IMG/VR virus record: IMGVR_UViG_3300026488_000010
DNA: 64,000 bases
Reading direction: 5' to 3' (one strand)
Origin: a virus
A program made the translations under genes and the position numbers. The notes beneath the pieces were generated by a model. It was not told the origin of the DNA and did no database searches. It saw only the letters and a program-made list of their open reading frames with translations. This document shows positions 58,983-64,000 of the stretch, one piece after another (within the stretch, counting starts at the first letter, position 1; the number at the start of each line of letters is the position of its first letter).

Positions 58983-59561
58983 ATGATGAAAGTAAAAGAA
59001 ATAAGAGAATATTATAAACAATTTTTATTGCCTGTAGATAGTGATAGTGTTAGAAATTCACACGGTGTTGATCATTGTGATGATGTTTTTAATTTAATGA
59101 TAAAATTGAATAAGAAGTTGGGTTATGGTTATAGTAATGAAATAATAGCATTCGCTGCTTATATACATGATTTATATTCAGATAGTACCAATAGAACGAT
59201 ACATCATATATTAGCACATACATATGTATTGAATAGAGTAGATGATTTATTAAAAGAATTATCTGGACACGATTTATATCTAGTCGCAGATGCTGTATTA
59301 GAACATAGAGCATCATATACTGGTAAATTTAGTTCTAATCTAAGCGCATTAATATCTGCGGCAGATAGAGGATTGCCTGATTATGATTTACATTACAACC
59401 GTTCATTGGTATACAATAATGGAGATCATGATGGAGTTATTGAGCATTTAAAAGATAAGTTTAGTAGAGGTGGTTACGCTACGAAGAAGTATCCTGATTT
59501 TTATATTGAGATGTTTAAAGAAGAGTTAGAAATATTTTGGAGTAGAATTGATGCGGCATAG
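58983..59561 (+). CDS. HD-domain phosphohydrolase
   Basis: SHGVDH...IHD...HH...EHRAS...AAD metal-binding pattern. Confidence 0.8.
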   Translation: MMKVKEIREYYKQFLLPVDSDSVRNSHGVDHCDDVFNLMIKLNKKLGYGYSNEIIAFAAYIHDLYSDSTNRTIHHILAHTYVLNRVDDLLKELSGHDLYLVADAVLEHRASYTGKFSSNLSALISAADRGLPDYDLHYNRSLVYNNGDHDGVIEHLKDKFSRGGYATKKYPDFYIEMFKEELEIFWSRIDAA

Positions 59562-59669
59562 ACGATGTATAATCTCTATGGATAAGTGCAGTTATTTCTA
59601 TATTAACTTTGGGAAATCCCAGAACTTAATATAGAAATCAATATAGTAATAAAATAAAAGGAGACAGAA

Positions 59670-59792
59670 ATGTCAAAGAAAGAAATAGAATTAATAAAAA
59701 ATTATAAAGGTCGTGTGACGGTATGTCCATCACATGAACCAATTAGAGAAAATTTGGTGAAGAGATCACCAAAATTAACAAGATATAGTTAA
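59670..59792 (+). CDS. 40-aa hypothetical protein
   Basis: Own translation MSKKEIELIKNYKGRVTVCP...; AAAGGAG RBS. Confidence 0.4.
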   Translation: MSKKEIELIKNYKGRVTVCPSHEPIRENLVKRSPKLTRYS

Positions 59793-60025
59793 ATAAGATA
59801 GGTTAAAATCCTATCTTTTATTGAAATAAAAGACAAGAAAAAAGCGATTATATAAACATTAATTTTAATGTTTATATAATCGCTAAATTTTTTATTCTTA
59901 TGTTTTATGGATCTGCTATAAACCTTTTTAGATTTAATAGTCCTAGTTCCCAAATTAATTTCTTTGGTTGCTGTTAGATATATATTCATATCTCGAGTTT
60001 TTACAATTTTTTTAATCTTAGACAT
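59789..60025 (-). CDS. ArfA/BrfA-like basic peptide (putative ribosome-rescue factor) with in-frame terminator
   Basis: ATG 60025 after ACAGGA; GTRTIKSKKVYSRSIKHK resembles BrfA GRMTKSKK...KRKHK and ArfA QRVEKNKK...YMRKGKH. Confidence 0.5.
   Translation of the reverse strand: MSKIKKIVKTRDMNIYLTATKEINLGTRTIKSKKVYSRSIKHKNKKFSDYINIKINVYIIAFFLSFISIKDRILTYLI
59832..59884 (-). terminator. 19-bp hairpin + TTTTTCTTGTC inside the ArfA-like ORF
   Basis: Arms 59843-59861 and 59866-59884. Confidence 0.7.
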
Positions 60026-60045
60026 AATGAATCCTGTTGTTTGTA

Positions 60046-60120
60046 TGGCGCTCCGTAGGAGAATTGAACTCCTGATACTACCGTGACAGGGTAGTGTACT
60101 AACCGCTATACTAACGGAGC
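60046..60120 (-). tRNA. trnD: tRNA-Asp(GTC)
   Basis: Cloverleaf, anticodon arm CTACC-CTGTCAC-GGTAG, encoded CCA. Confidence 0.95.
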
Positions 60121-60121
60121 T

Positions 60122-60198
60122 TGGTCGTCCTTCGAAGACTTGAACTTCGGACCTCACCCTTATCAGGGGCGCACTCTAACCAACTGAGCTAAAGGACG
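60122..60198 (-). tRNA. trnI: tRNA-Ile(GAT)
   Basis: Anticodon loop CTGATAA, T-loop TTCAAGT, CCA. Confidence 0.95.
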
Positions 60199-60214
60199 AT
60201 TAATGTTTTAATGG

Positions 60215-60290
60215 TGGCTCCGGAGGCAGAATTCGAATCTGCAATCTTCAAGTTAACAGCTTGCTACATCACCAGTTATGTTACTCCGGA
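60215..60290 (-). tRNA. trnN: tRNA-Asn(GTT)
   Basis: Acceptor TCCGGAG/CTCCGGA, loop CTGTTAA, CCA; 27:43 G-A mismatch. Confidence 0.9.
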
Positions 60291-60317
60291 ATATTTTTTG
60301 TAAGTATAAATACTTAG

Positions 60318-60390
60318 ATGAGGAAGAGGGTTTCGAACCCCCAACATTCGCCACCAAAAGGCGATGCTCTACCAGTTGAGCTATTCCTCA
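60318..60390 (-). tRNA. trnQ: tRNA-Gln(TTG), atypical, no encoded CCA
   Basis: TGAGGAA/TTCCTCA acceptor, TCGCC-TTTTGGT-GGCGA anticodon arm, T-loop TTCGAAA. Confidence 0.75.
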
Positions 60391-60402
60391 TCTAAATATT
60401 CA

Positions 60403-60547
60403 ATAAGAACACATATGACCGCGAATAAGCGTCTGAGGATTCGAACCTCAGTAACCTAAAGCATTCACTGCCTTTCGCTAATCACCTTTTCGGTTTGCAA
60501 CCCGTATAGTGTGTCGGCCGACAATTCGCGGTCATATGTATTCTTAT
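60403..60547 (-). ncRNA. Candidate ~145-nt structured RNA with a tRNA-type T-arm
   Basis: 16-bp perfect closing stem (60411-26/60524-39) extended by a G-U pair and 7 more bp; CTGAGG-TTCGAAT-CCTCAG T-arm; no cloverleaf. Confidence 0.6.
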
Positions 60548-60743
60548 GTATTCTTATTAAATTTAAACAATAGAACCTTTCATCCAAAACGGGCGAACAC
60601 TTAGTTCATCATAAACTTTATCCAATTCTTTTTGAGTATTTGCTAAACTTGAAGCGACTATCAATTCTCTAAAAGACATGTTTTTTAATTCTTTTTCTTT
60701 TTTCAATTTCTTTTCTTTTCTTTTCTTTTCTTTTTTTAATTTA

Positions 60744-60818
60744 TGGTGACCCTGCAGAGATTTGAACTCTGGTGACAGGCATGAAAAGCCTGGATCCTAA
60801 CCACTAGATGACAGGGTC
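60744..60818 (-). tRNA. trnE: tRNA-Glu(TTC)
   Basis: CAGGC-TTTTCAT-GCCTG anticodon arm, CCA. Confidence 0.95.
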
Positions 60819-60819
60819 G

Positions 60820-60911
60820 TGGAGGAGAATGAGAGATTCGAACTCTCGGACGATCAGAAACCGTCAACAGATTTCAAGTCTGCCGCCATCGACCAACTCG
60901 GCCAATTCTCC
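60820..60911 (-). tRNA. trnS: tRNA-Ser(TGA)
   Basis: Loop CTTGAAA, long variable arm, CCA. Confidence 0.92.
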
Positions 60912-60934
60912 ATATTATTATAACTTCTTTGTTG

Positions 60935-61011
60935 TGGTCGCATATCGAAGACTTGAACTTCGGACCTCACCCTTATGAGGGGCACGCTCTAACCAACTGA
61001 GCTAATATGCG
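60935..61011 (-). tRNA. tRNA with CAT anticodon, most likely tRNA-Ile2 (lysidine)
   Basis: Loop CTCATAA; body nearly identical to tRNA-Ile(GAT); lacks initiator GGG/CCC context with C1:A72. Confidence 0.8.
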
Positions 61012-61032
61012 GTAATATGCGATGGTGCCTGA

Positions 61033-61121
61033 TGGTGGATAGTGAGAGATTTGAACTCTCGGTACTCGAAAGTACGCTTCCTTAGCAGGGAAGTACCATA
61101 AGCCAGCTCGGCCAACTATCC
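61033..61121 (-). tRNA. trnS: tRNA-Ser(GCT)
   Basis: CTTCC-CTGCTAA-GGAAG arm, long variable arm, CCA. Confidence 0.92.
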
Positions 61122-61225
61122 TTAAATTTTGTAGTTAAATGCAACTTACGCAAATCTAAAGACAAGAAATGAGTAGCTACTTCACCGTTAGGCTCAGTAG
61201 CTACTCAAAAAAATAATTTAATTGT

Positions 61226-61369
61226 CTAAAGGGTTGGAGGCCATTCTTTCGCGACGTTATCATTATTTTCCCAAGAGCTACTGAACATACTATTTTGCAC
61301 ATTTTCATTAGTTGAGGCACTAATCTGCATATCATTAATCGATTCAATATTTAATGTACAATTTTTCAT
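61226..61369 (-). CDS. 47-aa hypothetical peptide
   Basis: Own translation MKNCTLNIES...EWPPTL; AAGGAA RBS; followed by hairpin 61170-61205. Confidence 0.35.
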   Translation of the reverse strand: MKNCTLNIESINDMQISASTNENVQNSMFSSSWENNDNVAKEWPPTL

Positions 61370-61484
61370 AATATGTTCCTTATTTTTTATATTTATTTTT
61401 CTTATACTTATTTGTTACCAGTGTTATTTTTTTACTCAAAATAATGCTATAAACTACTTAGACACGTTCCACTATTGTTGTGTC

Positions 61485-61670
61485 AATAATTTAAAAAAGT
61501 TCAGACCAGCTGCCCTGCTACATCTAAGTATGTATTAGACGGTTGCTATACTCCGCTGAGTCATCATAACGTTTTTATCACCTCGGTACTTTATTACTAG
61601 ACGATGATACTTTATAACTGCTTTTAACAGTAACGCTTTTATGCTCTCGTATGAACTTTTTTAAATTATT
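61485..61670 (-). ncRNA. Candidate structured RNA enclosed by a 19-bp stem
   Basis: aataatttaaaaaagttca (61485-61503) is the exact reverse complement of 61652-61670; interior GC-richer with small hairpins; no ORF. Confidence 0.4.
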
Positions 61671-61681
61671 TTAAATTATTT

Positions 61682-62505
61682 TGGACTTTTTAGAAGCTTG
61701 AGAATACAGCTTCTAAACGTGAATCTTAAAGACCTTATTTTTTAGTCTCTTTTCCACTTACGCGAGTAAGTACTTCACACGGTTGCAATTTTTATAGATC
61801 ATGCGATTGATCTCTAACTTATAACTACTCATATTTTATCAACTTGAGAACCTTGCGAGCTCTAAAAGACTACGAATCTATCATGAGACTTAATATAAAA
61901 GGATATTTGCCTTGGGGGCATCACCTCTCCATATTCAATAAATTGTATGGAATTAAACCGCTTTCGTTATAAATGAATCTGAACTTTCCATGTGCTTTCG
62001 CTTATTTAATTTTCAGTTTAAAATTTAATCTAATTTTTGTGTGATACCAATGTGTCAGATTAAGTGTGTCGTAACCTTTTGAGTCACAATATACACCACA
62101 TCAGTTGTTCAGTTTTTTACACTAAACAATCCGTTGGATTTGCTCCTTATGAGAACACTCCCAACTTCTTGAAATTCGCCCTTGCTTTTACACTTGAACC
62201 TAATTTCTACCTTTACTTGCTATTATTTATATCGTTGGATAATTGTTAAGTAGGTCCCCCTACAAATAATGCTACAGCCGTAAGCCCTCACATCCTAGGT
62301 CGTTATCCCAAACAATTCGATTTTCTTAATGTATCTCATATTTCAATAAGATATTAACGCAACAAACGTTAATCAAGTTAGCTTGCATAAACAAACTAGA
62401 TGCTAACATCTAGCGATGATTTATCAGATCACCTTTACACCACTTACATGATGATATTCGGATTATACTCCGACATAACTTTGACTGCTATGATTTTTCG
62501 CTGTT
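61682..62505 (-). ncRNA. Candidate large (~820 nt) multi-hairpin ncRNA
   Basis: No credible ORF, many stems, GAAA/GCAA tetraloops on minus strand, co-oriented with tRNA array. Confidence 0.5.
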
Positions 62506-62686
62506 TATATCTCTAATACATAATTAATTAGATACTGAGATATAAACAACTATATAAATACTCATATGTTTGTTTTAGAGTACTCAAATAGTTGTTTACA
62601 ATATACTATTTCTATAGTAACTATTTTCTATCTTTAAAGATAGAAAATAATATATTCCATTTAAATATTGAGATAAGGTTTAAACC

Positions 62687-62983
62687 TTATGCTCCGATTT
62701 TTTTACCTGATTTTGAGAGTTCAAACGCAAGTTTAGTACGCGCAGGTTTAGCTGGAATATCATAGAATGTTCCGGGAACTAGTGCATTCTCAACATTAAG
62801 ACGAGCAGCAGTTGCTCTAACATCTTTACGTTTAAAAGTACCATTTTTACCAAATGCTGCTTTGCCATTTTCCATAGCTTCTTTCACAATTGTATCAATT
62901 ACGAATTCTACTTTTTCTCTACCAGCATCAGCTGTTTCACCAAATTTCTCACTAAATTTTGCATATAATTCTTTTTCAGTCAT
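62687..62983 (-). CDS. hup: HU/IHF-like DNA-binding protein
   Basis: MTEKEL...FGKNGTFKRKDVRATAAR...IPAKPARTKLAFELSK matches HU fold; start re-called to 62983 (GGAG RBS). Confidence 0.8.
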   Translation of the reverse strand: MTEKELYAKFSEKFGETADAGREKVEFVIDTIVKEAMENGKAAFGKNGTFKRKDVRATAARLNVENALVPGTFYDIPAKPARTKLAFELSKSGKKIGA

Positions 62984-63566
62984 ATAATTCTCCGTTAAGT
63001 TTTTTTTGAGTTTCCTCATAAAAGATTTTATAAAATATAAAAGCTTTTATAAAGAAATCAGATCGAGGAGAGAAGTCTCGATCTAATTTAGGACGTTCTA
63101 ATGAAAAACAAAATATCTAATCAAGGATATAGATATGAGTAATAGTGACATATAATAAGCATTAAAGCATTAAAGCATTAAAGCATTAAAGGAGTCAAAT
63201 TATGAAATACAAAGTTGAGATAAGGGGTAGACAAAAAATACGAAACGCACGAAACACACACAAAACACGTGTCTTGTCAGACGAAAAGGAGTTAATTTCT
63301 TTTGTTTTGGTTTACTCAGATTTTATATAAGATTATACATCATTAAAGATTTATCGCGTGTTTTATCGAGTGTTCACTTAATAAGTACTTAATACCTTTA
63401 ATAAATTAAATTTTATTTCTGATCACCTGGCTGTTAAATATCAGCGCTCTAAATATAACAAATTATACTTAAAGCGTTGTATTTGAGTTACTTTATCTGT
63501 TTGTCTGTATTACATTTAATAATTTCTATAGTAACTTTTTCTATCTTTTAAGATAGAAAAATATAG

Positions 63567-63989
63567 TTACCAGGCGTTGAATCCGCCTGATGTACTAGGT
63601 GCTGTTATAGTACCTGCAGTTTTTTGGGTAGATGCTACAGTATTTGTGGCATGTGTTGTGCTCACTGTATCAGATACAGCGATATCAGTTAACTCTACTA
63701 AATCATCAGTACTTTGATTTAATGCTTTAAATTCTTGTTTAACCATAAATTCTTTATACATATTTGTCTTAGCGAATAATTTAATTCCTAAATTTACGAT
63801 TGTTTCACCATGAATTGCACTTGCCTCTTGAATAATAGTCATTGCATCTTTATCTAAAGCAACTGTTACTTTAGATAGTACTTCATCACCAGCAGTGCTA
63901 TTCATCTGAGGTTCAGATGAATATGATGTTGCAGGTGCAGGCTGTTGATGTTGCGGCTGTTTCGGCATATTTGCTGGAACTTCTAACAT
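63567..63989 (-). CDS. Hypothetical protein
   Basis: 140-aa ORF at window edge, GGA RBS remnant. Confidence 0.55.
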   Translation of the reverse strand: MLEVPANMPKQPQHQQPAPATSYSSEPQMNSTAGDEVLSKVTVALDKDAMTIIQEASAIHGETIVNLGIKLFAKTNMYKEFMVKQEFKALNQSTDDLVELTDIAVSDTVSTTHATNTVASTQKTAGTITAPSTSGGFNAW

Positions 63990-64000
63990 TATAATGATCC

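Follow-up and report, generated by a model that had tools for sequence, protein, structure and literature searches.

The GOLLD RNA family, reportedly described by Weinberg et al. in 2009, ranks among the largest non-coding RNAs of bacteria and phages. Its typical setting is a phage genome with tRNAs adjacent (PMC5737381). The Rfam model (RF02032, gathering score 150 bits) covers the conserved 3′ region of GOLLD only; a variable linker and a 5′ region of ∼400 nt that is less well conserved are further parts of the RNA, and variability of the 5′ region is one of the traits that define GOLLD (doi 10.1101/2024.12.08.627333). [quoted passage not shown] During phage lysis the amount of GOLLD increases, and ribosomes were recovered in a GOLLD pull-down (doi 10.1101/2024.12.08.627333).

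The window analyzed here is a 64,000-nt stretch of IMG/VR record IMGVR_UViG_3300026488_000010. It belongs to a 286,633-bp (∼287-kb) ENA metagenome contig, the genome of an uncultured, AT-rich jumbo phage, the source of which is probably a hydrothermal-vent metagenome; among the phage proteins encoded by this genome are an endolysin and a multisubunit RNA polymerase beta subunit that shares only ∼25% identity with its counterparts in phiKZ-like and other jumbo phages. The original prediction had proposed a GOLLD- or ROOL-like RNA, or else a new giant RNA, beside a tRNA array, and had suggested a comparison with Rfam by Infernal. GOLLD (RF02032) was matched at 62106..61695, on the minus strand only and over the full model (1-416 of 416), with 158.4 bits (E 1.2e-43), which is barely over the gathering score and about half the score of typical GOLLDs (278-328 bits). 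All helices of the model are seen in the window alignment, with non-canonical pairs at ∼9 of ∼98 consensus positions by the count of the NC line, and the GOLLD signature motifs are kept, namely the UCAAAAG loop, GAAAG, GAGUAGU, GUGGA and the terminal GUAUUCUCA loop (GUAaUCUCA in the family consensus). At a permissive threshold (E≤1), cmscan gave no match in 59500-64000 to ROOL, OLE, group I/II introns, RNase P or tmRNA; the other matches in this interval were eight tRNAs and sub-gathering ones (Plastid-psbl-rps4 and mascRNA-menRNA) lying on tRNA genes. The tRNA array was found where it had been noted, with eight genes downstream on the same strand. Taken together, the full-length match, the covariation in four relatives and the 5′ homology described below retain GOLLD from the original prediction and dismiss both ROOL and a new family: the minus-strand RNA is GOLLD itself. 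The gene at 62550..61689 (minus strand), carried by this vent phage, thus very likely encodes a GOLLD RNA of full length. The family is a known one, of which this is a new instance from a divergent, AT-rich clade with one remodelled hairpin, represented so far by a handful of metagenome contigs.

Features of the GOLLD locus, in 5′ to 3′ order of the minus strand; positions are those of the window.
Feature	Position	Strand	Evidence or remarks
HU/IHF-like DNA-binding protein gene, 98 aa	62687..62983	-	Immediately upstream; PHROG 379, E 1.4e-4; syntenic in all relatives
Perfect 12-bp palindrome UUUUCUAUCUUU/AAAGAUAGAAAA (also written TTTTCTATCTTT/AAAGATAGAAAA), then TTACTATAGAAAT	62608..62647	-	Between HU-like stop codon and GOLLD
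Whole GOLLD RNA gene	61689..62550	-	∼862 nt; ends inferred from limits of conservation with relatives
Leader hairpin	62500..62550	-	Sequence varies; hairpin always present just before conserved AAAAAUCAUA
Conserved 5′ domain, multiple hairpins including UGUCGGAGUAUAAUCCGA, CAUGUAAGUG stem and UGAUAA-loop stem	62107..62499	-	RNAalifold, MFE, model R1
Conserved GOLLD 3′ region	61695..62106	-	RF02032 full model 1-416; clade covariation
First long hairpin of Rfam model, loop UCAAAAG	62046..62105	-	Model positions 1-61; helices 1-3, 21 pairs, 9 compensatory
A-rich variable linker, ∼70 nt, with GCGAAAGC mini-hairpin	61976..62045	-	Model positions 62-136, low posterior
Terminal 10-bp hairpin, invariant loop GUAUUCUCA	61689..61717	-	Last Rfam hairpin; helix 17, 7 of 9 pairs compensatory
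Small 47-aa ORF before tRNA array	61369-61226	-	
Array of 8 tRNA genes (Ser, Met, Ser, Glu, Gln, Asn, Ile, Asp)	60046..61121	-	Downstream of GOLLD

A degenerate pattern of two GOLLD core motifs gathered 111 GOLLD loci from IMG/VR. Fourteen of these were compared with Rfam and all 14 matched GOLLD, ten with 278-328 bits, L097 with 199 bits, and L067, L088 and L049, which are contigs of 221-251 kb, with scores as low as that of the window (156-179 bits). No close relative of the window was present among the 111 loci, nhmmer similarity being weak. Closer relatives were reached via homologues of the upstream 98-aa HU/IHF-like protein, which are 54-99% identical and lie on metagenome contigs; a 110-aa form of the same ORF had no relatives in IMG/VR and no exact record. 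GOLLD lies directly downstream of the HU-like gene in four independent lineages, whose RNAs are 60-91% identical to that of the window and score 162-186 bits with Rfam. These are L114 (162 bits; HU-like protein 99% identical), the nearest relative with an RNA 91% identical, L117 (186 bits; 71%), L124 (179 bits; 59%) and L126 (167 bits; 54%). Full-length RNAs in the clade measure 834-870 nt, and partial GOLLD 5′ halves were found in L115, L121 and L127. Four related contigs (L119, L120, L122 and L125) retain the HU-like gene and, upstream of it, the ParM/actin-like gene but have no GOLLD after the HU-like gene, indicating that the GOLLD gene is not fixed in the group (presence/absence polymorphism). 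A "distant" blastn search with 61400-62700 against 50,697 GenBank phage records gave no match, nor did an exact 31-mer search of IMG/VR. A strict pattern of the 5′ core had no match in either IMG/VR or the GTDB genomes, so that the latter provided no host clue. A looser clade pattern, GCAACCGTG-N18-26-GTGGAAAA, drew 114 IMG/VR and 120 metagenome loci, none of which matched the clade profile (nhmmer; one weak match, E 0.12), and the loci examined proved to be non-GOLLD sequence, among it an unrelated phage repeat.

Covariation in the 3′ region was assessed in five clade members (the window, L114, L117, L124 and L126). RNAalifold recovered the same 3′ helices when the Rfam structure was not imposed, and pairs were counted on these helices with the long-range Rfam helix added as a pseudoknot (104 pairs). 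Standard pairs occupied 98.1% of cells, as compared with 84% in shuffles and 36-46% when partners were slid by 1-3 columns. Changes on both sides were seen in 44 of the 104 pairs, and none of the five measures was reached in 500 shuffles. The signature motifs are near-invariant in the clade, the exceptions being ACAAAAU for UCAAAAG in L126 and GAGUAAU for GAGUAGU in L117. Helix 13 departs from the family: the consensus hairpin GgUugg..ccaAcC, which Infernal aligned poorly, is replaced in the clade by a shifted 5-bp stem that covaries between AGAUC/GAUCU and AGGUU/AACCU and bears an 8-nt loop ending in GCAU. A CGGUU/AACCG helix is invariant in the clade and has as its counterpart in the family consensus the complementary guga/ucac. 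The linker differs in length among relatives (alignment A4, columns 68-146), and neither a tRNA search nor the Rfam scan matched a tRNA inside the linker of the window GOLLD. Elsewhere, as in the literature, tRNA or tRNA-like sequence lies within GOLLD linkers (L097:9754-9825, L049:6326-6388, L067 and L088). No U-run follows the terminal hairpin of the window and no terminator is listed there, whereas L117 does have a U-run.

Since the Rfam model is confined to the 3′ region and the literature describes a 5′ region of ∼400 nt, the 5′ region of the window RNA was placed at ∼62107-62550. RNAalifold assigned 43 pairs to its first part, 20 of them compensatory, and 62 pairs to its second part, 38 of them compensatory. 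The leader hairpin takes a differing version at the same place in the window, L114, L121, L124, L117 and L126. The 5′ half had no nhmmer similarity to the 111 IMG/VR GOLLD loci. R1, a covariance model of the 5′ core (62350-62502, ∼150 nt), matched L088 (40.9 bits), L067, L049, L069, L025 and eight more, in every case 200-400 nt upstream of the Rfam 3′ region of the locus and on the same strand. Elements common to the window and these other GOLLDs are an A-rich lead (AAAAAU), a hairpin followed by AUA, a GUAA-loop hairpin, AAAG and a CGC-closed hairpin. Matches at the position expected for the upstream part of other GOLLDs show that the whole RNA is homologous, and that the 5′ domain is the GOLLD family's own and no foreign addition. 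The layout is a 5′ domain of ∼445 nt, an A-rich linker of ∼70 nt and a conserved 3′ core of ∼350 nt.

The limits of the gene were taken from an alignment (A2) running from the stop codon of the HU-like gene to 250 nt past GOLLD. Lineage-wide similarity starts at the sequence-variable hairpin, with the invariant AAAAUCAUA next to it (window 62550-62490), and similarity to L114, L117, L124 and L126 ceases directly after the terminal hairpin (∼61689). The bounds of 61682-62505 proposed originally were therefore nearly right: their lower edge, the 3′ end, stands at ∼61689, but the 5′ end lies ∼45 nt further out, near 62550, so as to include the leader hairpin. The original description of a stretch with no credible ORF, GC-richer than intergenic DNA, in an otherwise gene-packed window, agrees with what was found. 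Minus-strand genes fill the surroundings; on the sense (minus) strand there is no ORF of at least 30 aa in 61689-62550, nor between the end of the 98-aa gene at 62687 and the start of the 47-aa ORF at 61369. Three plus-strand (antisense) ORFs of 38-61 aa overlap the stretch, but these differ between relatives and are not conserved in L124 and L126, where they are absent. The GC content of 61689-62550 is 33.3%, compared with 31.4% for the whole window and 19.9-29.8% for five of six neighboring spacers, the sixth, a gap in the tRNA array at 60391-60743, having 32.3%.

All of the local stems noted at the outset are part of the structure described here. The local stems at 61756-71, 62354-72, 62396-413 and 62458-73 are minus-strand hairpins of the conserved structure, 61689-98/61708-17 is the terminal hairpin, the GCAA-capped stem at 61845-62 is present on the minus strand with an invariant G-U pair, and GCGAAAGC at 61994-62001 is the mini-hairpin within the linker. 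Neither of the two long-range pairings proposed there is upheld, since local helices take up both partners: the GAGACU (∼61746) that had been joined to AGTCTC (∼61885) pairs locally with GGUCUU in helix 16, and the UCUAAA (∼61689) that had been joined to TTTTAGA (∼61861) forms the 3′ strand of the terminal hairpin. Folding energy no better than that of shuffled sequence had also been named as a ground for rejection, and the two halves differ in this respect. The 5′ half has a lower minimum free energy than all 100 shuffles (z = -3.1), whereas the Rfam-matched 3′ half does not stand out (z = -0.6), so that this criterion would wrongly reject the better-documented half. Folding energy is a poor test here, and the case is carried by covariation.

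Several other explanations were considered for the stretch. It might belong to a new RNA family, consisting of a GOLLD-like 3′ module joined to an unrelated 5′ domain and possibly differing in assembly or function, as the absence of nhmmer similarity in the 5′ half, the remodelled 3′ hairpin and the clade-specific 5′ patterns missing from IMG/VR and GTDB genomes could suggest. This is very unlikely, since the R1 matches in other GOLLDs fall on their 5′ regions, in the right place and on the right strand, with motifs in common, and a variable 5′ region itself defines GOLLD (doi 10.1101/2024.12.08.627333). A decaying relic of GOLLD, i.e. a pseudogene-like remnant with family resemblance but no selection, would account for the borderline Rfam score (158.4 bits vs 278-328 for typical members) and would be in keeping with the z of -0.6 for the 3′ half and with the four contigs that have no GOLLD after the same HU-like gene, the RNA hence being losable. 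Decay is nonetheless exceedingly improbable for an RNA that has kept 98% of its pairs across five lineages of no more than 60-70% identity through 44 double changes, the loop and junction motifs of which are invariant and the 5′ domain of which covaries too. Similarly low scores in the jumbo-phage GOLLDs L067, L088 and L049 indicate that the low score of the window reflects an AT-rich, divergent clade rather than decay.

The antisense ORFs, and the lack of a terminator between GOLLD and the RNAs downstream, might also be read as signs that the stretch codes for small proteins or is a mere long structured leader or precursor of the tRNA operon that has no function by itself. With no sense ORF of at least 30 aa, antisense ORFs missing from L124 and L126, changes that compensate within helices rather than following codon periodicity, and a late-promoter-like word (61405-61416) between GOLLD and the tRNAs, the likelihood of this explanation is negligible. 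The assignment of the stretch to a full-length GOLLD RNA is thus preferred.

Transcription signals were sought around the GOLLD gene. Neither a promoter nor an intrinsic terminator for GOLLD was identified, a sigma-70 scan being at chance level. The AR9-like late word AACAAAT-N3-TA occurs upstream of GOLLD with one mismatch (62570-62559), in an indel missing from L114, and the locally conserved TATTTATATAGT showed no enrichment in the window as a promoter word. An exact copy of the late-promoter-like word is present between GOLLD and the tRNAs at 61405-61416 (minus strand), 36 nt upstream of the 47-aa ORF, such that the tRNAs may have their own late promoter and need not depend on GOLLD transcription. 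The palindrome and TTACTATAGAAAT recur in a second copy at 63522-63560, one gene upstream, both copies following minus-strand stop codons. The element is conserved in L114, L115, L121, L126 and L127 despite diverged flanks, and is identical in the distant L126 and L127; it is probably the terminator of the upstream gene or a regulatory or protein-binding site. A further word, TTA(N)TATAGAAAT, is enriched in the window (17 matches vs 8.5 expected) and often forms inverted pairs in spacers. The vent metatranscriptome runs X2 and X3 contain 0.50 and 0.48, respectively, of the sampled words of the wider interval 61400-62700.

The HU-like gene, GOLLD, the small ORF and the tRNA array follow one another in a conserved order on one strand, and tRNAs lie downstream of GOLLD in L114, L117 and L124 as well. 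The HU-like protein of the window itself had no match in Pfam; PF00216 was matched in three of its relatives (P0010-P0012), weakly where the strength is given (L124). As a general partner of GOLLD the HU-like gene was rejected, as tblastn found no match to it next to GOLLD in any of the 111 IMG/VR loci. In 4 of 14 IMG/VR loci a tmRNA gene lies 0.5-3 kb from GOLLD (L068:5469-5846, L093:2788-3186, L064:484-881 and L072:8488-8886).

Three further stretches near the gene were noted. A 186-nt element at 61485-61670 (minus strand) is enclosed by an A/U-rich inverted repeat of 19-25 bp and folds with z = -3.7 relative to shuffles; it had no Rfam match and no further copy in the window or the fetched loci. 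The possibility that it extends GOLLD at the 3′ end was ruled out, since L114, the GOLLD of which is 91% identical, has unrelated sequence at that position. The 350-nt gap in the tRNA array (60391-60743, minus strand) contains a 24-bp inverted repeat, 96% complementary (60403-60426 / 60524-60547), with no tRNA by ARAGORN and no Rfam match. The 546-nt spacer at 63020-63566, in which no credible gene is present, holds the unit AAGCATTA four times in tandem (63157-63198) as well as a run rich in A and C, and was likewise without an Rfam match.

Since the three-part layout is the same as that of env-38, the same assembly is the best guess for the window RNA. The RNA would fold into two domains and self-assemble, free of protein, into a 14-subunit D7 cage of ∼38 nm with the linker facing inward; an env-38-like 14-mer is somewhat favored, as an extrapolation from one distant member. 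Transcription would occur during infection, either of GOLLD by itself or with GOLLD as the head of an RNA operon reaching the tRNAs, from which it would then be cut free. Reading from the neighboring tRNAs, GOLLD may have a role in the takeover of translation by the phage; its placement with translation-related genes, eight tRNAs here and tmRNA in 4 of 14 IMG/VR loci from other phage contigs, is consistent with such a role during infection. It is conceivable, if unlikely, that the clade is a distinct GOLLD subtype, with its remodelled 3′ hairpin, a 5′ cap domain of its own and a cage differing in subunit number or contacts, and that it heads a processed RNA operon in which stem-enclosed RNAs and tRNAs form one translation-takeover module, the cage serving to hold tRNAs or parts of the ribosome or to deliver them. 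What is known of the family is not altered by the clade. It lies at the detection limit of Rfam, its four relatives give clean covariation in both domains, and it can broaden the family alignment and help to test how universal the inter-subunit contacts are.

Among described RNAs, ROOL resembles the window RNA in that it is large and ornate, is borne by phages near tRNA islands and builds a cage from RNA alone, in its case octameric (PMC5737381; doi 10.1101/2024.12.08.627333), but it is unrelated in sequence and fold, with no match at E≤1 in 59500-64000. The nearest counterparts among the IMG/VR loci are the GOLLDs of L067 and L088 (221-233 kb) and L049 (251 kb), which have similar scores (156-179 bits), give the best R1 matches (25-41 bits) and sit within large tRNA islands; they differ from the window in their tRNA-like linker inserts, the absence of an HU-like neighbor and weak nhmmer similarity. 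With typical GOLLDs (RF02032) the window RNA shares the match to the full 3′ model, the helices, the signature loops and a length of ∼860 nt, as well as a separate and less conserved 5′ domain, a variable linker, a conserved 3′ core and a phage genome with same-strand tRNAs adjacent. It differs from them in its score, about half of theirs, its GC content of 33%, one shifted 3′ hairpin, a linker with no tRNA, and a 5′ domain recognizable by a structure-aware model only. Whereas typical carriers are prophages of Lactobacillales and phages of lakes and marine waters, the carrier here is a jumbo phage of a hydrothermal vent that encodes a multisubunit RNA polymerase of its own, indicating that GOLLD is also carried by phages that bring their own transcription enzyme.
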